Part shown: positions 449-21,992 of the stretch, piece after piece
Numbering within the stretch: the stretch's first letter is position 1
Layout of the letters: each line of letters starts with the position of its first letter
Source: an uncultured virus (IMG/VR IMGVR_UViG_3300045955_000385)
Lineage: Duplodnaviria; Heunggongvirae; Uroviricota; Caudoviricetes
Virus record (IMG/VR): IMGVR_UViG_3300045955_000385
Length of the DNA stretch: 21,992 nt
Reading direction: 5' to 3' (one strand)
Notes under the pieces: model-generated
Database searches by the model: none
The model's input: only the letters and a program-made list of their open reading frames with translations
What the model was told of the DNA's origin: nothing
Program-made: the position numbers and the translations under genes

Positions 449-2121
449 AGCACTGTGATAATCCCACGACTATCGTAGACAGAACCATCCTCCGGCCGCA
501 CCATCGCACGCCCCAGGGCCATCACGAGGGCAACAACGAGGTCAATCTTCTTCTTACTGAGTGCTTTGCTGGGCTTCAGGTTATCCGCAGGGTCCTTTTG
601 CACCGCCACATTGCCTACACACCACGTCAGGACGGGATGATTGCCATGGCGTATCTCATGACTTAAGATGAGCCGTTCTAGCTCTTTCGATGGGGCATTC
701 ATGCTGGCAAACCCCTGGCGATATTGGACAATCTCGTACCCCTCAGCCATGAGTTGCGTCTGCATCTGGGTACTATTCCATGGATCAATGCCAATTTCGC
801 GTATATCAAAGCGCTGCGAGAGTTCCCGGATGTCATGCTTGATACAGTCGTAATCTGTGACGTTCCCCTCCGTCACCCGTAAATAGCCTTGTCGCTCCCA
901 CATGGCATAGAGCGGGTCCCCCTTCACCTCCAGCATCGTCACGGTATCACGCGGTACCCAGGCATAGGGCAACACGGCATTGCCACAGGTAGGGAAGTAC
1001 AGAACCAACCCGCAGAGATCTGAGGTCGTAGCCAGATCCAACCCGGCCCAGCATGGCTGCCCGTGCAGATCCGCCTCGGTGAGCCGCTCCCCACACGCCA
1101 GCCAGTGATCCATCGACAGCCAGCGCTCCACCTGGGCTGTCCAGATGTTCAGCCGGTAGCGCTTAAACGCGTTTTCCAGCCGCGGCGACTGCACCGCGCG
1201 CTGAAAATCTTCCCGGAAACTCTCCAGACTTATCACCGATCCGAGTGCTGGATTCGCCTCATGCCAGACCGCCTCATCCTTCCAGCACGCTTCCTTTGCG
1301 GCGTCCTCCTCGACTCGGCGCATGGCCCACTCAGCGGTGCGCACATAGGCAAAAAACCCGTCATCCTGGACGCTCCCCTCCATCACCTGCATGGCCTTGG
1401 TGTGATACTCGTAACAGAGGCTCTCCGGGTCGACGCCAGCGGTGGTGATGATCACCTGCAGGGGCTGCCGCCTGGCCGCGCCACCATACATCAGGGCATT
1501 CCAGAATTTATCGTTCGGCTGGGCATGCATCTCGTCCATAATGAGCATCGAGATGTTCATGCCTTCGTTGGTACCCGCCTCAGCCGAAAGTGCCTTGTAG
1601 AGGCTCCTGGAGGCCACATCCGTCATATGCTTCTGGGATTCGAGGAGTGTGAGGCGTTTGTAGAGACCAGGGGACGCTTTCACCATGTTCACCGCTTCCC
1701 GGTAGACAATGGCGGCCTGGTCCCTCGACGCTGCGGCTGAGTAGACCTCAGCGCCCTCTTCACCGTCACCTAACAGACCATACAGGGCCAGGCCGCTACA
1801 CAGGCTACTTTTACCGTTCTTTTTGGGCACTTCGATATACGCTGTGCGGTAGCGCCGTGTCCCATCCGCCCGCATCCAGCCAAACAGGGGCTTGATAATC
1901 TCATCACGCTGAAACGGCAGGAGCTTGAACGGCTGCCCGGCCCATTCGCCCTTGGAATGGCGCAGGAAGGTCTCGAAAAACGTCACCACACGCCCGGCCG
2001 CCACGGTGTCGAACCAGCACCCATGCGCCACGGCCATGGCGTCAGCGGCGCTGCGGGTCCAGCGCTCGGTCGCACGCTTCTGGGCGGCGGTGAGCTTGCG
2101 GGATGAGTACGAAACGCTCAT
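445..2121 (-). CDS. terL: Terminase large subunit (HK97/Terminase_1-like)
   Basis: Walker A VPKKNGKS, Walker B LIMDEMH, ITTAG coupling motif, nuclease motifs GLDLA and KIDLVVALVMA. Start placed at ATG 2121 behind an AAGGA SD. Confidence 0.97.
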   Translation of the reverse strand: MSVSYSSRKLTAAQKRATERWTRSAADAMAVAHGCWFDTVAAGRVVTFFETFLRHSKGEWAGQPFKLLPFQRDEIIKPLFGWMRADGTRRYRTAYIEVPKKNGKSSLCSGLALYGLLGDGEEGAEVYSAAASRDQAAIVYREAVNMVKASPGLYKRLTLLESQKHMTDVASRSLYKALSAEAGTNEGMNISMLIMDEMHAQPNDKFWNALMYGGAARRQPLQVIITTAGVDPESLCYEYHTKAMQVMEGSVQDDGFFAYVRTAEWAMRRVEEDAAKEACWKDEAVWHEANPALGSVISLESFREDFQRAVQSPRLENAFKRYRLNIWTAQVERWLSMDHWLACGERLTEADLHGQPCWAGLDLATTSDLCGLVLYFPTCGNAVLPYAWVPRDTVTMLEVKGDPLYAMWERQGYLRVTEGNVTDYDCIKHDIRELSQRFDIREIGIDPWNSTQMQTQLMAEGYEIVQYRQGFASMNAPSKELERLILSHEIRHGNHPVLTWCVGNVAVQKDPADNLKPSKALSKKKIDLVVALVMALGRAMVRPEDGSVYDSRGIITVL

Positions 2122-2399: not shown

Positions 2400-2876
2400 C
2401 TACGCCACTTTCGCCTTGCGCTTGGCCGTATTCACGAACTGATCCAGCAGATCACCCTCAGTCGGCGTGCCACTGGCCAGGCGCACCCGTGCCGCTGGTG
2501 ACAAGCCCAGGTCAGTCATGTACTTGTGCATGGTATCGAGGCACTTATGGGCCACCTGGATACTCGGATGCATGGTTTTTTGCCCGTTACCGCCCCGCAC
2601 AATCACCTCATCGATCAGGCTCTCTGCTTCCCGCCAGCGGGCATACACCGTGCAGTAGGCTGCCAGGACCGTCTGATCGACAATGGTGAGTATGCCAATG
2701 CGGTGCAGCTCACCAGCCACGCGGTGCCACTCTTCCAGGGCAACATCGGTCAAATAATCGGGGGTTGTAGGCATGCCAGGGGCAGGTTTGGGCTCTCCCT
2801 GGGGCTTGGGATGGTGCGTGCCGATGCCCTTCAGTTTGCGCAGAGGTGAGGGGACTGGTTTCCTGCCACGGGCCAT
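2400..2876 (-). CDS. terS: Terminase small subunit, P27 family
   Basis: MARGRKPVP start, A..EW.RV..EL...GIL...D...LAAYC, and LGLSPAAR.RL; lies upstream of terL. Confidence 0.95.
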   Translation of the reverse strand: MARGRKPVPSPLRKLKGIGTHHPKPQGEPKPAPGMPTTPDYLTDVALEEWHRVAGELHRIGILTIVDQTVLAAYCTVYARWREAESLIDEVIVRGGNGQKTMHPSIQVAHKCLDTMHKYMTDLGLSPAARVRLASGTPTEGDLLDQFVNTAKRKAKVA

Positions 2877-2985: not shown

Positions 2986-3384
2986 TCAATCGCTGGACAC
3001 CCGCCCTCTGTACCCCCGGCTAGCCCGCAGGGTGTGCTGCTTCCGTTCTAGCGCTGACTTGCGACTATGACAGGCTAAGCACAAAGGCTGCAGATTCACC
3101 TCATCATAGGCTAACGACAAGTCCTCTACGAGTGGCACAATATGGTCCACTTCTACCGCTGGCTCCAGCCTACCCCATGCCGCATGCACGCCGTAGGGGT
3201 CTGCACACAGAGGTGCCCGGTTCAGCACCATGCGGCGCAGCCGCCTCCACCTGGCAGAGTTGCGTACCTGTTGGGCGGACCACAGGAGGGGATTCAGCTT
3301 GCGTTGCAGATGGTTATAGGCACGATCATCGGCAGTACGGTCATGAAAGCGGTGGGCTTTATGAGAAGGGGGACGTGTAGGCAT
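2986..3384 (-). CDS. Terminase-associated HNH endonuclease (HK97 gp74-like)
   Basis: RWRRLR...PLC, VDHIVP, NLQPLCLACHSRKS; immediately upstream of terS. Confidence 0.92.
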   Translation of the reverse strand: MPTRPPSHKAHRFHDRTADDRAYNHLQRKLNPLLWSAQQVRNSARWRRLRRMVLNRAPLCADPYGVHAAWGRLEPAVEVDHIVPLVEDLSLAYDEVNLQPLCLACHSRKSALERKQHTLRASRGYRGRVSSD

Positions 3385-3772: not shown

Positions 3773-4996
3773 ATGCCACGACTGACGACGCGCATGATCA
3801 AGCAGCTCACGGGCTCTGGCGATACATTTCTGTGGGACGAGCAGGTGCCTGGCTTCGGGGTACGCTGCCGCCGTGGGCAAAAAACATACGTGCTCCAATA
3901 CCGCGTGCTCGGTGGACGCGGCAGTAGGCAGCGGCGTGTGACGCTCGGGCGCGTGGGGACGATCACCCTGGAGGATGCCCGCGTCCTGGCGCAGGAGTAC
4001 CTGCGGGGGGTGCGCTACGGGCACGATCCCGCCGGGGCACGTCAGGCCATGCGGGCGGCGCCACGCGTGGAGGACCTGGCGGAACGCTACCTGCGGGAGC
4101 ATGCCGACGTCAAAAAAAAAGCCTCCAGCGCCAGGATGGATCACGTGAACATGCGCCGGCACGTGCTGCCGGCACTCGGAACGCTGCGGGTCGAGACGCT
4201 GACCAGAGCGGATGTGGCCAGGCTGCATCACGGCATGCGCGAGACACCAGGGGCGGCCAACCGGGTGCTGGCATTGCTCTCGAAGATGTGCGCGCTGGCC
4301 GAGCAGTGGGGGTGGCGTGAGCCGAGCAGCAATCCGGTGAAGGGCACCCAGCGCTACCCGGAGCGCGCCAGGGAGCGGCATCTGGCTGAGGCGGAGCTGG
4401 GACGGCTCGGGGCGGTCCTGCGGCAGGCGGAACTGGAGCGAACCGAGAGCCCGTCAGTGATTGCCATGGTGCGGCTGCTGCTCATGACCGGCGCCAGGCG
4501 TGGGGAAGTGCTGGGGCTCAGGTGGGAGCGCATCGACTGGCAGAGGGGACAGGTACGGCTGGCGGATTCCAAAACGGGACCAAAAACGCTGTACCTCTCG
4601 GAGGCGGCTCAAGCCGTGCTGGCACACCTCCCACGTCTGGAGGGCAACCCGTGGTGCCTGCCGGGGCGGGTGCAGGGGCGGCCGCTCGCCAACCCCCAGA
4701 AGCCGTGGAAGCGGTTGCGTACGCAGGCCGCCCTGGAGGACGTACGGCTGCATGATCTGCGGCACACGTATGCGGCAGTAGCGGCGAGGGGTGGTTTGAG
4801 CTTGCCCATGATCGGGGCGCTACTCGGGCATCAGGAGGCGCAGACGACGCAGCGCTATGCGCATCTGGTAGGGCATCCGGTACAGGCGGCGGCCGAGCAG
4901 GTGGGGGAGGCGGTCAGGCGGGCGCTGGGGGGGGAGAAGGGGGCTGGGACTTCATGGCCGCAGACAGTTCATCGGCGACCCTGCGAAGTTGTTTGA
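3773..4996 (+). CDS. int: Tyrosine recombinase (integrase) with N-terminal arm-binding domain
   Basis: LWD...GFGVR arm-binding domain, TGARRGE, HDLRHT, LLGH, TQRYAH; AGGAGG SD before ATG 3773. Confidence 0.96.
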   Translation: MPRLTTRMIKQLTGSGDTFLWDEQVPGFGVRCRRGQKTYVLQYRVLGGRGSRQRRVTLGRVGTITLEDARVLAQEYLRGVRYGHDPAGARQAMRAAPRVEDLAERYLREHADVKKKASSARMDHVNMRRHVLPALGTLRVETLTRADVARLHHGMRETPGAANRVLALLSKMCALAEQWGWREPSSNPVKGTQRYPERARERHLAEAELGRLGAVLRQAELERTESPSVIAMVRLLLMTGARRGEVLGLRWERIDWQRGQVRLADSKTGPKTLYLSEAAQAVLAHLPRLEGNPWCLPGRVQGRPLANPQKPWKRLRTQAALEDVRLHDLRHTYAAVAARGGLSLPMIGALLGHQEAQTTQRYAHLVGHPVQAAAEQVGEAVRRALGGEKGAGTSWPQTVHRRPCEVV

Positions 4997-16580: not shown

Positions 16581-18082
16581 TGCCCTACGCCCTGATCCTA
16601 CCCCTGTCGACGCTGCTCGTCCTCGTGCTGGCCCTCGTCGTGGACGGGGTGCCCGCACTGGCCACCACCTATCACACGCGCCAGGCCGCCGAGACGCGCC
16701 AGGGCGCGAGCCGCCCGCGCGGCTCCGATAGCTACACCTGCACGCAGGCGACCCACCCGGCAACTCCGAAAGGAAGCATCAATGGTGGGCTCCAATGTTT
16801 AGCCCCCGGTGATACCTTGATGATCGGGCCGGGGACGTACAACGAACTGCTCATCTCGCAGCAGTCGTCGTCACGCCAGTGCTCAAGCGGTGACCTGGCG
16901 GTGGAGCCCTTGTGTGTCCCGATGCCCAACGGTGTCAGCCCGGACCGTCCGACGCGGCTCATTGGTGACGGACAGGCGGTACTCTCGCCCCAGGGCAAGC
17001 AACTCCCCGGCGGCGGCTCGGCCATTACCCTCCTCGATTACGCCCGTCATCTCCATATCGAGGGCCTGAAAGTTGTGCGCCACAGTGCCCCCGGCTCCGT
17101 CGGCGGCATCTACAGCGGCAACGTGCAGTACGTCACCCTGACGCGCAACGAACTGGCCGACGGCCAGATCAAGGGTGGGGTCACGTCGCGCTACCTCACC
17201 ATCACGCACAACTATATCCACCACACCGGCCTGAAGGAATGCCCGCAGGGCGATACCAAACCGACCCCCGCCGGGTGTCCCCACGGCATGTACGTCTGTG
17301 GCACGGATCATGTCATCACCGACAACAGAGTGGAGTATTGCTCTTACTATGGAATTCAGGTGTCGTGTGAGCAGGGCGGTATCGCCCGCATCCGCCTGGA
17401 GAGGAATATCGTGCGGCACAGTGCTGCCGTCGGTATCCGCTGTGGCGGCCAGGATTGCCTGGTGGCCAGTAATCTGCTCGAAGCCAACGGCCAGGGCATC
17501 ACCCTCTCAGGCTCCGGCCTGGTGGCGCACAACACCATTCACGGCTACAAGGCCGCCGACTGGAACGACGACCCGAGTGCCATCTGGGATACCAGTGGCG
17601 GCTCCGGCAGTGGCTGGCAGATCGTCAACAATCTCCTCACCGGCCAGAAAAACAGTTTTCTCCTCGTTGGCAACAACGGCGGGGCGGCCATTGATCCAGG
17701 CCGCGTGCATCACAATATGAGCGAGCAGGTTGGCAATCCTGGCGTGACGCTGATTGCGCCGGTCAGTGCCATCTACCGCGACGCGGCGAGTGGCGATCTC
17801 AGCCTGGCGGCCACCAGTCCGGCCCTGGGAGCCGGGGTCGCCCTTCCGGCCGTGCCTGCCGATCTGTTCGGTGCCCTCTATCCGACCCCGCCGGATCTGG
17901 GGGCCATCAGTGGGGCGGGGCTGCCACCTGACCCCGGACCCGACCCCGGACCAGAGCCCACGCCGCCAGGTGCGTGGGTGTGCCGTGGGGATATTCAGGC
18001 CGTGCCTGGTGAAATACAGCTCGAATGCCAACCGAAGCAGGAGGGACGACGATGGAGGACACGCGATGATCTGTCTCGGTGA
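16580..18082 (+). CDS. Secreted right-handed parallel beta-helix protein (pectin-lyase-like fold)
   Basis: Hydrophobic signal peptide ending ALA-TTY, GSD...C......P..SI..GL..L.PGDTL....GTY.E, repeated N-x-I/G-I rungs, C-terminal DLSL..TSPALGAG...PDLGA and a Pro linker. Confidence 0.85.
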   Translation: MPYALILPLSTLLVLVLALVVDGVPALATTYHTRQAAETRQGASRPRGSDSYTCTQATHPATPKGSINGGLQCLAPGDTLMIGPGTYNELLISQQSSSRQCSSGDLAVEPLCVPMPNGVSPDRPTRLIGDGQAVLSPQGKQLPGGGSAITLLDYARHLHIEGLKVVRHSAPGSVGGIYSGNVQYVTLTRNELADGQIKGGVTSRYLTITHNYIHHTGLKECPQGDTKPTPAGCPHGMYVCGTDHVITDNRVEYCSYYGIQVSCEQGGIARIRLERNIVRHSAAVGIRCGGQDCLVASNLLEANGQGITLSGSGLVAHNTIHGYKAADWNDDPSAIWDTSGGSGSGWQIVNNLLTGQKNSFLLVGNNGGAAIDPGRVHHNMSEQVGNPGVTLIAPVSAIYRDAASGDLSLAATSPALGAGVALPAVPADLFGALYPTPPDLGAISGAGLPPDPGPDPGPEPTPPGAWVCRGDIQAVPGEIQLECQPKQEGRRWRTRDDLSR

Positions 18083-18263
18083 CTGGCTGGCGTGGACCGC
18101 CGCTGCCGTCAATGGCGGCATCGCCCTCTGGCAGATCAGTGGCTGGCAGCGCCTGGCGCGGGCTGAAAAGCAGCAGGCACAGCTCTGGATTGACAGGGAA
18201 GTCGAGCAGTTCCTGGAGTGGGCCCGGAGTCGCCAAGAGCTGGAAGACGAGGGAGGTATCTGA
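18066..18263 (+). CDS. Small membrane protein
   Basis: GGAGG SD; hydrophobic N-terminus MICLGDWLAWTAAAVNGGIALWQI. Confidence 0.6.
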   Translation: MICLGDWLAWTAAAVNGGIALWQISGWQRLARAEKQQAQLWIDREVEQFLEWARSRQELEDEGGI

Positions 18264-18523
18264 TGGCCCGCACCGCGGCCCGTGCCCACTACAAGCGCCA
18301 GGGCCGCTGCGTCTGGTGCGGCAAAAAGCCCCTGGGCGGCCGCGCCAAGTGTGCCCGCTGCCTGGCGTGGAACCGCCAGTATCAGCGCGCCCGGTACCTG
18401 AAGCTGCGGCAGGACGGCCGCTGCGTGCAGTGTGGGCAGGCGCCGGCAGGGTACCCGTACGTGCGCTGCGAGGCGTGCCGGGTGTATATGCGGGAGTACC
18501 ATAGGCGGTATCAGCGCAACTGA
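18263..18523 (+). CDS. Basic double zinc-ribbon protein
   Basis: TGATG coupling and GGAGG SD; two G.C..CG...C..C units. Confidence 0.78.
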   Translation: MARTAARAHYKRQGRCVWCGKKPLGGRAKCARCLAWNRQYQRARYLKLRQDGRCVQCGQAPAGYPYVRCEACRVYMREYHRRYQRN

Positions 18524-18699
18524 CACGGGCATTGCACCTGCAAGCAGCGCTCCAACGCGACGCCGCCGGTGGCCGTGACGCCGTGCCCCAGCCAGTTACT
18601 CCAATACACGCAACTCTGCGCCTGACGCTCCTCTAATGCGGCGACGAGCGGGCCTGTACAGCCGCCGAGCAGGCACGCCAGGAGCACCAGGGTGGGCAT
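18511..18699 (-). CDS. Small lipoprotein
   Basis: Hydrophobic leader with lipobox LGGC; last gene of the leftward structural operon. Confidence 0.7.
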   Translation of the reverse strand: MPTLVLLACLLGGCTGPLVAALEERQAQSCVYWSNWLGHGVTATGGVALERCLQVQCPCQLR

Positions 18700-18701
18700 G
18701 G

Positions 18702-18800
18702 CTACGCCTCAGCCTCCAGGGCCTGCACCCGCGCCGCGAGGGCTTCCACCTGCGCCAGCGTCTCTTGCAGCGCGCCCCACAGCCATGGCACCAGCTTACT
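18702..18800 (-). pseudogene. Orphaned original 3' end of the tail-fibre chaperone gene
   Basis: Encodes SKLVPWLWGALQETLAQVEALAARVQALEAEA*, paralleling the end of 19586..20731; it has no start of its own. Confidence 0.85.
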
Positions 18801-18807
18801 TCTTCCC

Positions 18808-18849
18808 TTGATTAGGTCACAAATTACTAGGTACAATATCTGATATACT
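18808..18849 (+). promoter_or_regulatory. Promoter(s) of the HNH cassette
   Basis: TTGATT-N18-TACAAT (18808-18837) and extended -10 TGATATACT (18841-18849) in an AT-rich patch. Confidence 0.6.
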
Positions 18850-18854
18850 TTGTC

Positions 18855-18939
18855 TGCCCAGCTAGGGAGTCGACCCCGAAAACCTGTTTCCGGCAGGCTG
18901 CTGGGCACCTCAACCCGGAACCAACGACGGAGGTTGGGG
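18855..18939 (+). ncRNA. Candidate structured 5' leader RNA of the HNH gene
   Basis: TGCCCAGC/GCTGGGCA stem enclosing two hairpins; loop TTCCGG is complementary to downstream CCGGAA. Confidence 0.5.
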
Positions 18940-18941
18940 CC

Positions 18942-19649
18942 ATGCCACGCAGACGTTCCAAAGAACAACGTGCCGGGGAACGCGCCTATAACCGCGCCTA
19001 TAAAGCGTCCCATAAGGAAGACATTCGTCGCCAAACACGCGCCTATCGGGCTGCCCACAGAGAGCAGATTCGTCGCCAAACACGTGCGTATAAGGTTGCG
19101 CACAAGGAGGAGCTTGCGGCCAAAAGACGCGTTTATGTCGCTGCCAACAAGGAGAAAATTGCGGCACAAAGACGTGCCTACGTTGCGACCAACAAGGAGA
19201 AAATTGCCGCACGGACCCGTGCCTATAAGGTGGCTCACCGGTCGGAAATTCGCGTACAGGAACGCGCCTATAAAGCTGCGCACCCTGACCTTGTCGCAGC
19301 AACACGTGCCAGACGCAAGGCTCGCGAGGCGAAAGCATCCGTCAACGATCTTACTGCAGCGCAATGGGAGGAAATCAAGGCGGCCTACGGTCACCGTTGC
19401 GTGTACTGCGGTCGCAAAATGCAGCGGCTGACGAAAGATCATATTGTCCCACTCGCCAAAGGCGGTACGCATACGTTCTCCAATGTCGTCCCAGCCTGTC
19501 TGTCCTGTAACAGCAAGAAAGGCGCCAGAGCCCCCCTCATCCCTGTGCAACCCTTGTTATTAACCATCGCCTCTTCTTGCTCGGCTCAAGAATCGGTTAA
19601 ACCGGCAAGTTGTGTTTCGACTCGCTCTAAACGTTGTAGCAATTCCTGA
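18942..19649 (+). CDS. Free-standing HNH endonuclease with N-terminal 15-aa repeats
   Basis: LT..QW..I...Y..RCVYCG.....LTKDHIVPLAKGG.H..SNVVPACLSCNSKKG; GGAGG SD. Confidence 0.93.
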   Translation: MPRRRSKEQRAGERAYNRAYKASHKEDIRRQTRAYRAAHREQIRRQTRAYKVAHKEELAAKRRVYVAANKEKIAAQRRAYVATNKEKIAARTRAYKVAHRSEIRVQERAYKAAHPDLVAATRARRKAREAKASVNDLTAAQWEEIKAAYGHRCVYCGRKMQRLTKDHIVPLAKGGTHTFSNVVPACLSCNSKKGARAPLIPVQPLLLTIASSCSAQESVKPASCVSTRSKRCSNS

Positions 19650-20731
19650 CATACAGACCATAGCCATGGGACCAATTTGCTATAGTCTATTTGCTGTGGA
19701 ACAATTTGACCTTGTTCATCCACCGCATCTGGCGCGCCGGTGATGACGCCCTCCACCACGCCCTGCACCTCGCTGGCGACAAAGCCGACGCCCTCGGTGC
19801 CATCCGCGCGCCAGCGCCAGGTGCGGGCCGGGATCTGGCGCAGGACGTCCAGGGCGCCGGTGAGCGAAAGCACGTCGGTTTTGAGCCTGGCATCGGAGGT
19901 GGTATTAAAGGCCGTGGCTGTTTCAGAACTCGTAATGCTGCCGACGATCGTATTGGTGGTATTATGGCACAACAGGACTGTGACGGTGCCCGCCTGTGTC
20001 GAGCGTGTCCCCAGTGCTGCCCCAGAGGCCACGTCAATCTCGACCGAGAGCCAGGCCGGGATGTTTGAGGTATTGACGCCCACTTTGCTCGCAAAATAAT
20101 TGGGCGCGGTGCCATCGGCAAAGATATTATACTTATCCGTTCCGCTGCTTACTTGACTCCGTATGCCATAGAGCCCTGACCCTGCACTATCCTCAATCCA
20201 GATTCCACCAACGGTAGAAAGGACAGGCAGTCGGATCGTCCCCCCCGTAATCGCCACGGCGTTGGCGTTCTGCGTGGCCATGGTGCCCAGCGCCAGCAGC
20301 CCGCGCCAGGCCGCCGCCAGTGTCGAGCGCGAGGCGATCGGCGTCACCGTGGTGATGGCCCCACCAGAGACCACGAGCTGCACGGCGACCAGTAACCCAT
20401 CCAGGTCTGCCGGCTGCGTCGCAGAAGGCCTCCACCTATAGTGCGAACCGTACTCCGTGGTCCACTGCGCGTAGTCGGTGACTGTCGTCTCCGAGACAGC
20501 TAACCAATAGTTGCCATCGGCGCCCGTCAGGGTCACGGCATGCGGTTCTTGCCGCACGTATACCAGGGTGGTGCCCTGACGGACATACGCCGTCGTAGCA
20601 AACGGCGCCAGGACCATGCCCGGCGGCGCGGGCACCTCTGGCCAGGTGGTCGAAAGGATGGTCGCCGGTAAAAGGTCCGAGCACACCGACTGCAATTCAT
20701 ACATCACGTCAGGGACTGCGTGGGAGTTCAA
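19586..20731 (-). CDS. Tail fibre/spike protein with C-terminal Peptidase_S74-type intramolecular chaperone
   Basis: LGTMATQNANAVAITGG fibre motif, TSDARLK autocleavage motif, GFVASEV, QIDYSKLVP and a terminal coiled coil. Confidence 0.88.
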   Translation of the reverse strand: MNSHAVPDVMYELQSVCSDLLPATILSTTWPEVPAPPGMVLAPFATTAYVRQGTTLVYVRQEPHAVTLTGADGNYWLAVSETTVTDYAQWTTEYGSHYRWRPSATQPADLDGLLVAVQLVVSGGAITTVTPIASRSTLAAAWRGLLALGTMATQNANAVAITGGTIRLPVLSTVGGIWIEDSAGSGLYGIRSQVSSGTDKYNIFADGTAPNYFASKVGVNTSNIPAWLSVEIDVASGAALGTRSTQAGTVTVLLCHNTTNTIVGSITSSETATAFNTTSDARLKTDVLSLTGALDVLRQIPARTWRWRADGTEGVGFVASEVQGVVEGVITGAPDAVDEQGQIVPQQIDYSKLVPWLWSVCQELLQRLERVETQLAGLTDS

Positions 20732-20746
20732 TGTCTTTCCTTTCTC

Positions 20747-21811
20747 CTAGGGGGCACTGGCGAGCAGTGTTGCCCAATAGACGACCACCGACAGCTCACC
20801 ATTGGCATCGAAACGGCCACCATCAGCAGCCACTTGCAAGACATACGCGGTGTGCGCTATCGGCTGATCACCAACGCTAAAACTCTCTTGCGTCGTCCCG
20901 CTGGTGGGTGTGAGGTTCGTCAGCAGGCCAAATCTATTATTGACGATACTGTCCCCAATGAGGAGCCCGGTGAGGCCACGGGACGTGCCAAACGCCGCCG
21001 TAATCGTCACGGTCACGCCCAGCACCCGTGCACCTTCCGGAGTCAGTCCCGTGGCCGTGAGCTGGCGTTCGCCGTCCTGCGCCGTGAGGGTGACACTGGT
21101 GGAGCCCGTCTCCAGCACGCCCTCGACGCTGGGGGCATCCGAGAACACTTCCCACACCGCCGTGAGCTGGAGCGCGCCGGCGTTATCAAAACGCCCACCG
21201 TCAGCCGCCACGAGACAGCTGTACGGCTGCGCGGCAATCGGCGCATCCCCGGTATGGAACTGGGCCTGCGTGGTCCCTGTGGTGGCCGTGAGTTGTGTCG
21301 TATGGCCCCACCTGTCCTCCACCACGGGATCACCGATATAGAGCCCGGTGAGCCCCCGCGACGTGCCGAAATCTTGCGTGATCGCGGCGACCACGCCCAG
21401 CACGCGGTACCCCTGCGGGACGAGCCCGGTGGCCGTGAGCACACTGGCGCCATCGATGGCGTTGAGGGTGGTCTGGGAGGTGCCAATTTGCACGGCGCCC
21501 GGCACTGGGGTCACGCCGCTGGAGAATTCATAGGACGAAACGGACCAGATAAGCACATCATCAGCATCGAAGAGCCTGAGATCAGTAGGGCCAGTCAAAT
21601 AGACCGTAGCCGCGCCCTGGTCGTCTAGCACCGTTGGGTTTGGATTGCTGATGGTGAGAAAAGGGTCCGAAAATGTCGAACTCGGGGTAGATGTTCCAGG
21701 TAAATAGCTAAACAATTTGGCGCCAATAGCTGGCTGGCCATCAATCACCGCCTGGAAGTGCGGCCATGGATAAATTTCTACAAGTGTGCTCTCGGTTACA
21801 GTCGGTGCCAT
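20747..21811 (-). CDS. Virion structural protein: N-terminal attachment-like domain plus two tandem ~115-aa beta domains
   Basis: GQP..GAKLFSY..GT.TP..TFSD......NPNP.VLD..G N-terminus; duplicated LTATGL.P.G.RVLGV...IT..FGTSRGLTGL.IGD...VAADGGRFD domain. Confidence 0.75.
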   Translation of the reverse strand: MAPTVTESTLVEIYPWPHFQAVIDGQPAIGAKLFSYLPGTSTPSSTFSDPFLTISNPNPTVLDDQGAATVYLTGPTDLRLFDADDVLIWSVSSYEFSSGVTPVPGAVQIGTSQTTLNAIDGASVLTATGLVPQGYRVLGVVAAITQDFGTSRGLTGLYIGDPVVEDRWGHTTQLTATTGTTQAQFHTGDAPIAAQPYSCLVAADGGRFDNAGALQLTAVWEVFSDAPSVEGVLETGSTSVTLTAQDGERQLTATGLTPEGARVLGVTVTITAAFGTSRGLTGLLIGDSIVNNRFGLLTNLTPTSGTTQESFSVGDQPIAHTAYVLQVAADGGRFDANGELSVVVYWATLLASAP

Positions 21812-21992
21812 ACTGCACTTTCTGCTAAAGTATTGTGTCCACACGGACGATAAGATAGACTAGAAGCTGCCGTGCAGGGTTTGGCCACCCTCGCAAGTGC
21901 AGCAGCGCCAATCCGCTGATTGCAGCACGGCGCACCACCTCAGCCTGATTGGAGGTTGTCTCATGTCCTCATCGGATCGTTGGCTCTTCGCC

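Follow-up and report, generated by a model that had tools for sequence, protein, structure and literature searches.

The 21,992-nucleotide (nt) stretch of DNA analysed here, hereafter the window, is the uncultured-virus record IMGVR_UViG_3300045955_000385 of IMG/VR (Caudoviricetes), and its subject of interest is an HNH endonuclease cassette lodged at the 3' end of a tail-fibre gene. The tail-fibre gene in use (19586..20731, minus strand) encodes 381 amino acids (aa) and was recognised by its open reading frame (ORF), by matches to PHROG tail-fibre families and by a C-terminal S74 intramolecular-chaperone domain (Peptidase_S74, PF13884, at aa 279-327; 38.9 bits, Pfam cut-off 22). The protein, which ends in ...QIDYSKLVPWLWSVCQELLQRLERVETQLAGLTDS before its stop codon, was recorded (as P0001) on eight contigs. 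The peptide SKLVPWLW was encoded twice on the minus strand: from 19681 as AGC AAA TTG GTC CCA TGG CTA TGG, within the gene in use, and from 18800 as AGT AAG CTG GTG CCA TGG CTG TGG, within an orphan gene end; five of the 24 nt differed, all synonymously. This orphan (18702..18800, minus strand), which reads SKLVPWLWGALQETLAQVEALAARVQALEAEA up to its stop, closed with a TAG (18704-18702); 2 nt separate this stop from the ATG, at 18699, of a lipoprotein-like downstream gene (18511..18699, minus strand).

The cassette separating the two gene ends was a 918-nt insert (18801..19718). Along the tail-fibre strand it displayed a replacement 3' end (19586..19718, minus strand; EQGQIVPQQIDYSKLVPWLWSVCQELLQRLERVETQLAGLTDS and a stop), a 23-nt spacer, an antisense HNH endonuclease gene (18942..19649, plus strand, 235 aa) convergent with the tail-fibre gene, and a 141-nt leader (18801..18941, plus strand) containing promoter-like hexamers, a three-way-junction RNA and a hairpin overlapping a Shine-Dalgarno sequence.

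The limits of the insert were obtained by comparison with L001, a viral contig with a related tail-fibre gene matching window residues 147-378 at 81% identity. The fibre of L001 was 1120 aa long and ended in ...AVDEEGRIQPQQIDLSKLVPWLWGALQETLAQVEALSARVQALEAEA with no HNH gene after the stop. Downstream, both sequences carried the lipoprotein gene, an opposite-strand ORF rich in Cys and the gene of a beta-helix protein. Three blastn blocks were collinear between them: window 20094-19719 with L001 4200-4575 (89.2% identity), the orphan, window 18800-18702, with L001 4613-4711 (91%), and window 18704-18464 with L001 4858-5100 (85%). The first block constitutes the native gene part adjoining the insert (19719..20094, minus strand), the proposed left homology arm, and the left crossover fell in a run common to the two sequences at 19719-19729; the third includes the lipoprotein-like gene, syntenic with L001 4862..5053. 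At the place of the 918-nt insert, L001 held 37 nt, so that the same site was filled in one relative and empty in the other.

The orphan was identical to the working end of L001 at 86 of 96 nt and 31 of 32 aa, and because of this match we take it to be the ancestral, native end of the gene. The end in use shared only 40 of 93 nt with L001 (13 of 31 aa) and for that reason is regarded, on the strength of the same alignment, as foreign. The locus combined an in-frame foreign end, a nuclease ORF and a displaced native end nearer to L001, the pattern of a gene-end replacement. L001 also displayed, between its fibre and lipoprotein genes, a 49-codon hydrophobic ORF (4712-4857) missing from the window, a 146-nt difference located at 18700-18702. 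The nearest virus record (G001) did not match window 18000-21992, and blastn of window 17500-21992 against the phage collection returned no match.

The replacement end comprised 44 codons and a stop; it aligned collinearly with the native end, which has one codon more. Of 31 aligned residues, 13 were the same in orphan and end in use; a synonymous choice existed for 11 of these, and in 10 the two ends used different codons. At the DNA level the two ends were 44% identical, with a longest common run of 8 nt. When flanks were compared as peptides, the window pair reached 32.3 bits, whereas none of 200 mismatched control pairs exceeded 25.4 (350-nt flanks); the similarity of the two ends therefore exceeds chance. 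G+C content at third codon positions (GC3) was 0.295 in the end in use, 0.848 in the orphan, 0.748 in the gene body and 0.56 in the HNH gene, and total G+C dropped to 0.45-0.50 at 18750-18899 and 19550-19749, compared with 0.64-0.75 in neighbouring stretches. The end in use kept the motif PQQIDxSKLVPWL of S74 C-termini and the Q-E-L register, as seen against 42 homologues; in S74 ends this conserved motif is followed by an amphipathic helix. None of these 42 S74 homologues displayed an end close to that in use, and the viral contigs held no relative of the 55-aa end in use.

Two tail-fibre alleles could have been joined by faulty assembly, and related variants do coexist in the samples: a minor contig of run X13 goes on past 18700 with the L001-like version, so that both forms occur in one sample. 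However, one 3377-nt X13 contig covered 18400-19909 with zero differences, contigs of run X14 spanned both junctions (18800/18801 and 19718/19719), and the protein with the new end is recorded on eight contigs. Neither X13 nor X14 was flagged as a possible source run of the window, and because contigs from two such runs bridge both junctions, a chimera is contradicted and its probability is negligible. Window parts left uncovered in X14, X16 and X18 carry no information. Contigs of two RNA libraries covered the HNH gene, the joint between leader and orphan and the new gene end; carried-over DNA could account for them, and the strand was not given. The runs with window sequence, roughly 20 in number, were labelled soil metagenomes.

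The HNH gene was intact. The protein matched PF01844 at 54.2 bits (cut-off 21.4), the further Pfam matches being HNH_5 and HNH_4 only, and its closest solved chain was the HNH endonuclease 4h9d (E 1.5e-11). Residues C153, C156, D166, H167, N181, C186, C189 and N190, which form the CxxC, DH, N and CxxCN signatures, were invariant in six aligned sequences. In one correction to the first-pass annotation, the conserved core ended at PVQPLLL (19562), and the last 28 codons of the ORF (to 19649) were not conserved and are merely the antisense of the new tail-fibre end. By eye, the N-terminal half (window 18942-19330, plus strand) displayed about seven 15-residue repeats of the form RAYxxAHxExIxxxx, supported by a 45-nt period of 2.4 copies found by Tandem Repeats Finder at 19102-19211; these repeats may form a modular DNA-reading array.

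The leader opened with a promoter-like TTGATT-18-TACAAT at 18808-18837, beginning 7 nt inside the insert edge; this is a consensus match only, with one found against 0.5 expected. It was followed by a three-way-junction RNA (18855-18919, plus strand) scoring 35.7 bits with the Rfam family int-alpA (RF02996), 0.1 below the gathering score of 35.8, and by a hairpin overlapping the GGAGG (Shine-Dalgarno) before the HNH ATG. Homologous leaders scored 39.2 (L154, 1412-1480), 36.1 (L144, 848-910) and 35.0 bits (L140, 495-559), the first two exceeding the gathering score. When 11 HNH leaders were aligned, compensatory changes affected 9 of the 16 pairs predicted. A model built from this alignment (R1) matched 16 times across 79 sources; each match stood immediately 5' of an HNH, and 11 of them were training rows. 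As the single-sequence fold of the window leader was no better than shuffles (z -0.63), support for the structure rests on this covariation. The leader resembled int-alpA in its three-way junction and in the junction letters CUAG, CGAAAA and CUG; unlike int-alpA, it lay in the 5' leader of an HNH gene and not beside int or alpA. An exact search for the 48-nt leader edge of the cassette found no match elsewhere.

What the first-pass annotation had deduced about the locus was in part borne out by these comparisons. The doubled SKLVPWLW had the codons and positions claimed, the end in use was AT-richer beside an orphan in the GC-rich style of the phage, and the orphan matched the working end of a relative, as expected of an ancestral end. 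The empty allele that had been predicted exists in L001, where the 49-codon ORF precedes the same lipoprotein gene. The insert, proposed as a self-contained unit, carried its promoter-like site, leader and HNH gene on the opposite strand, and the check proposed against a chimeric assembly came out in favour of a genuine arrangement.

From these alignments it seems likely that a free-standing HNH cassette of the homing type entered the 3' end of the fibre gene together with a foreign copy of that end. The final 44 codons of the S74 chaperone domain are replaced in frame by sequence of the insert, behind which the native last 32 codons lie unused. The HNH protein would cut or nick HNH-less alleles in the conserved coding stretch between PQQID(L/Y) and SKLVPW, the 5' edge of the orphan at 18800 probably marking the break. 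The break would be repaired from a cassette-bearing genome, on the left through homology in the gene body and on the right either through homology in the orphan and downstream genes, in repeated homing, or by end-joining at the break, in a first entry. The donor of a first entry would be a diverged one with the HNH gene placed just after a stop codon, as in locus L228 described below. The working gene should escape cutting because the new end differs at almost every synonymous site, and low identity with short common runs means that the two copies cannot recombine to delete the cassette. In known S74 proteins the chaperone is cleaved off after folding, and since the swapped piece lies in this chaperone the mature fibre is probably unchanged. 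Two variants may be distinguished: either the whole unit is transferred in homing, with the orphan acting as right homology arm, or the orphan is the scar of a single entry, produced by one-sided homologous repair and end-joining, with the edge at 18800 as the break.

Homologues of the window HNH were gathered from 8 loci on viral contigs and 80 on metagenome contigs, with 32-70% identity. Translated flanks on either side of each HNH were compared for 88 sequences (87 loci with a tblastn hit and the window), 63 of which displayed at least 150 nt on both HNH sides. With 1000-nt flanks, 2 of 150 mismatched control pairs reached an E of 1e-5 or lower and 0 of 150 an E of 1e-6 or lower; short contigs and short orphans restrict what the test detects. 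A 6-mer test had no clean rate, since its control (26 of 400 pairs) included same-lineage pairs.

Locus L148 (61.6 bits) was a mirror image of the window. A GC-rich orphan 5' fragment (GC 0.60) abutted the HNH 3' end, and on the promoter side the working gene began anew, with 45 AT-rich codons as its 5' end (GC 0.36, against 0.61 in the rest of the gene). Between the two copies, 34 of 44 residues were identical, compared with only 79 of 132 nt. Relatives of this target gene were not found, and hence no empty allele for L148. In L123, a borderline case when judged by similarity only (E 2.8e-5), a small Cys-rich gene ended in the AT-rich codons of HLSTRDAALAALKLWEAQKGRGEE and a stop, the HNH gene followed on the same strand, and GC-rich HMTPRQAAEAAVRLWQAQREAAHA, with its own stop, started at the HNH stop. 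L232, met in the survey of S74 genes below and not scored, carried its HNH gene just before a tail-fibre gene with about 30 AT-rich first codons (GC 0.32-0.40); a 7-codon orphan start, MALPKFY, stood at the far side of the HNH with three synonymous differences. Going by these sequence layouts, the HNH family displays duplicated ends at four unrelated genes, two at the 3' end (window and L123) and two at the 5' end (L148 and L232). Replacement ends were AT-richer than the HNH genes carrying them, as noted for window 19586-19718 (GC3 0.295 vs 0.56), L148 286-420 (GC 0.36 vs about 0.42-0.52) and L232 2311-2400. A diverged donor of low GC content, and not selected recoding, may be behind the AT-rich spelling of the new end.

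This recurrence bears on ordinary tail-fibre mosaicism, in which two phages exchanged an S74 end with neighbouring DNA and the HNH gene came along as a mere passenger. Fibres are indeed mosaic here, the 1120-aa fibre of L001 matching just residues 147-378 of the 381-aa fibre, and S74 ends are conserved enough for recombination. However, homologous exchange would leave no duplicated native end, the right junction lacked homology, the insert edge stood 7 nt before the HNH gene's own promoter-like site, and the HNH family was found repeatedly between duplicated gene ends (L148, L123, L232). Passive exchange of this kind is accordingly judged very improbable.

Other loci of the family displayed different surroundings. 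Fifteen high-scoring loci had the HNH gene between two paralogous tail-tube genes, and in this lineage (L198-L214; also L081-L087) the same intergenic site was filled in 9 of 17 close loci and empty in 8; in three of the nine filled loci, that site was occupied by an HNH with only 38% identity to the others. Paralogous genes around the HNH in L081-L087 were considered as a cassette-borne duplication and rejected. In relatives that lack the HNH the two genes are neighbours, and their composition is native; the tail-tube HNHs are for this reason read as plain intergenic insertions. The family behaves as mobile, given a sporadic, site-specific distribution like that of homing endonuclease genes. 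In L156, an HNH homologue (530-1150, plus strand) was found beside three group I intron matches (1197-1433, 1508-1736 and 2554-2795, minus strand), two above the Rfam gathering score and one below. In L139 (1278-1400, minus strand) and L135 (1127-1250, minus strand), the HNH homologue converged on the 3' end of a capsid-like gene with about 35 last codons that looked AT-richer by eye; no orphan was found at this gene end, and the 7-mer SDAAGRS shared in L139 was off-frame and about 500 nt from the HNH, hence a chance match. Flank similarity in L096 involved membrane segments and was set aside as ambiguous. Twenty-nine loci on genome contigs of Actinomycetota, matching the HNH core only, gave flank matches that were merely low-complexity, Arg/Pro-rich and uninterpretable.

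The S74 end was surveyed from the other side in 82 S74 genes, including those of the window and L001 and 80 further loci, by searching 2.5 kb downstream of each for a copy of its own last 40 residues. The window alone gave an orphan. Ten other hits were C-termini of stop-to-stop peptides of 134-655 aa and were taken, by length and position alone, for separate S74-bearing genes. An HNH of the family was present in 2 of the 80 further loci, L228 and L232. In L228 (254-3202) an HNH 51% identical to that of the window, with the same leader, started 12 nt beyond the stop codon of an S74 fibre gene (740 aa) and was convergent with it; neither an orphan nor a shift in codon composition was found there. 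L228 may represent a plain arrangement of the donor type and shows how a donor of the window cassette could have been built. A quick HNH tree of 65 rows and 126 columns, in which 40 of the 62 inner branches stayed open, grouped L228, L232 and one tube-site variant with a Shimodaira-Hasegawa-like approximate likelihood ratio (SH-aLRT) of 95.

The motif DAVDxxGxIVPQQIDxSKLVPWL at the S74 end would suit a homing target, being conserved in 42 homologues. The evidence in these contigs for S74 as the specific target is nevertheless thin. The first-pass annotation had expected S74-specific targeting, and this was not upheld: apart from the window, L228 held the lone HNH of the family abutting an S74 end, and it displayed no duplication. 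Duplicated gene ends beside HNH homologues, which that annotation had proposed to look for at S74 ends, were found at three other genes. The suggested spread between tail-fibre genes found no support either.

Several observations weigh against the favoured reading, a homing-type cassette that entered with a foreign gene end. The S74 domain was present in 0 of 117 HNH-homologue loci (473,588 nt), and an orphan end in 0 of 81 other S74 genes. Most usable HNH loci had no flank duplication, and by similarity alone only the window and L148 passed among 48 non-tube loci. Searches of viral and metagenome contigs found neither a donor nor a second copy of the window cassette, and for the lineage of the window only one empty and one filled allele were found. 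The window HNH did not group with L228 in the quick, poorly resolved tree. A 12-nt run, CAGCAAATAGAC (QQID), was identical in the new end (19682-19693, minus strand) and in L001 (4598-4609), though not common to four other S74 genes compared; we estimate that its codon choices would match by chance roughly 1 time in 24. Such a common run in an otherwise diverged stretch is at odds with complete recoding of a recognition site, and it may be due to chance, be a conversion patch or form part of the recognition site.

A rival reading is a one-off scar, in which the HNH normally sits intergenically after an S74 gene and a single transfer between diverged phages dragged the donor's end along, the orphan being roleless junk without any homing as a block. 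The plain arrangement of L228 with the same leader, the plain insertions of the tube lineage, and the lack of both a second S74 gene with an orphan and a second cassette copy all agree with it. Recurrence of the duplicated-end layout at three other genes of the HNH family does not. The orphan was, in addition, intact and conserved like its flanks (91% vs 85-89%), which fits a recent event or retention alike. On balance, we hold such an isolated accident to be unlikely and favour entry of a homing-type cassette with its replacement end.

A bolder proposal starts from cleave-and-rescue drives, which are engineered systems. The HNH cassettes of soil phages could be natural counterparts of these, each with a maximally re-spelled end (3' or 5') of the essential gene that it cuts, so that coding sequence could be invaded with neither intron nor intein. 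A leader of the int-alpA type would time expression, and in the window the S74 end would let the element hop between unrelated fibre genes and shuffle their ends. This extension is tentative, and we regard it as doubtful.

The rest of the window encodes the large and small terminase, a small second HNH, an integrase, an anti-repressor, methyltransferases, ParB and a primase/helicase; from this gene content the window is read as a phage of the temperate type. The second HNH (132 aa, 2986-3384, minus strand) adjoins the small and large terminase genes and is unrelated to the cassette; its terminase-side position is the usual place of packaging-associated HNH proteins.

Free-standing phage endonuclease genes of the Seg and Mob type occupy intergenic positions or divide a gene into two halves that both work. 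The window cassette is nearest to two groups of elements in fungi. Gene hybrids created by mobile open reading frames (mORFs) were reported, in the excerpted text of PMC3630166, from fungal mitochondria (atp6 of Allomyces macrogynus; atp6, atp9, cox2 and nad3 of Glomus). As described there, mORFs share with the window a foreign in-frame C-terminal end, an endonuclease ORF and a displaced native C-terminus downstream. The native piece was 91-98% identical to relatives in mORF hybrids and 91% in the window, and the inserted piece 64-81% in mORFs and 43% in the window (PMC3630166). Unlike the mORFs of that excerpt, the window cassette has a phage rather than an organelle as host; its nuclease is an HNH, the excerpt giving no family for the mitochondrial ones, its nuclease gene is antisense with its own promoter-like site and structured leader whereas the mORF is in phase with the host gene, and relatives of its HNH also replace 5' ends (PMC3630166). 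WHO elements of yeasts, according to the portion of PMC7282813 considered, replace the 3' end of the aldolase gene FBA1 at each integration and display allele-specific cleavage. Like them, the window cassette is a splicing-free element replacing the 3' end of its target gene; unlike it, WHO proteins are intein-like zinc-finger fusions of the eukaryotic nucleus with demonstrated cleavage (PMC7282813). Because Pfam places the window nuclease in HNH families only and WHO proteins are described as intein-zinc-finger fusions, the window cassette is taken to work like the mORF and WHO elements and is not filed as a member.

Seg and Mob of T4-type phages are characterised, in the excerpts of PMC2988022 and PMC2790892, as free-standing homing endonucleases with intronless homing and co-conversion of flanking markers. 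The window cassette is similar in having a nuclease gene without intron or intein, sporadic among relatives (PMC2988022, PMC2790892). Seg and Mob spread by break repair that drags flanks along (same excerpts), and the cassette would do likewise. A carried replacement end with an orphan was not among the Seg and Mob features described in those excerpts (PMC2988022, PMC2790892). No phage description of a gene-end-replacing HNH layout was found in the full-text literature searched, including passages of PMC10448857, PMC2248197, PMC8778798 and PMC9957025; subscription journals were outside the scope. The phage host, the HNH nuclease, the antisense self-contained unit with a structured leader and the 5'-end versions among relatives distinguish the window cassette from mORF and WHO elements.

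If the proposed reading is true, phage homing endonucleases could invade coding sequence by way of a carried replacement end, with neither intron nor intein, as happens in fungal mitochondria and yeasts. Structural genes, in this case the folding module of a tail fibre, would thereby gain a further route to local mosaicism. Annotation pipelines misread the short orphan pieces of genes and the AT-rich gene tips of GC-rich phage genomes, and the proposed reading would explain both. The orphan edge constitutes a directly testable prediction of a cleavage site. Finally, the link between the cassette and a structured leader resembling int-alpA, an Rfam motif without assigned function, would offer a way to study how such nucleases are restrained.

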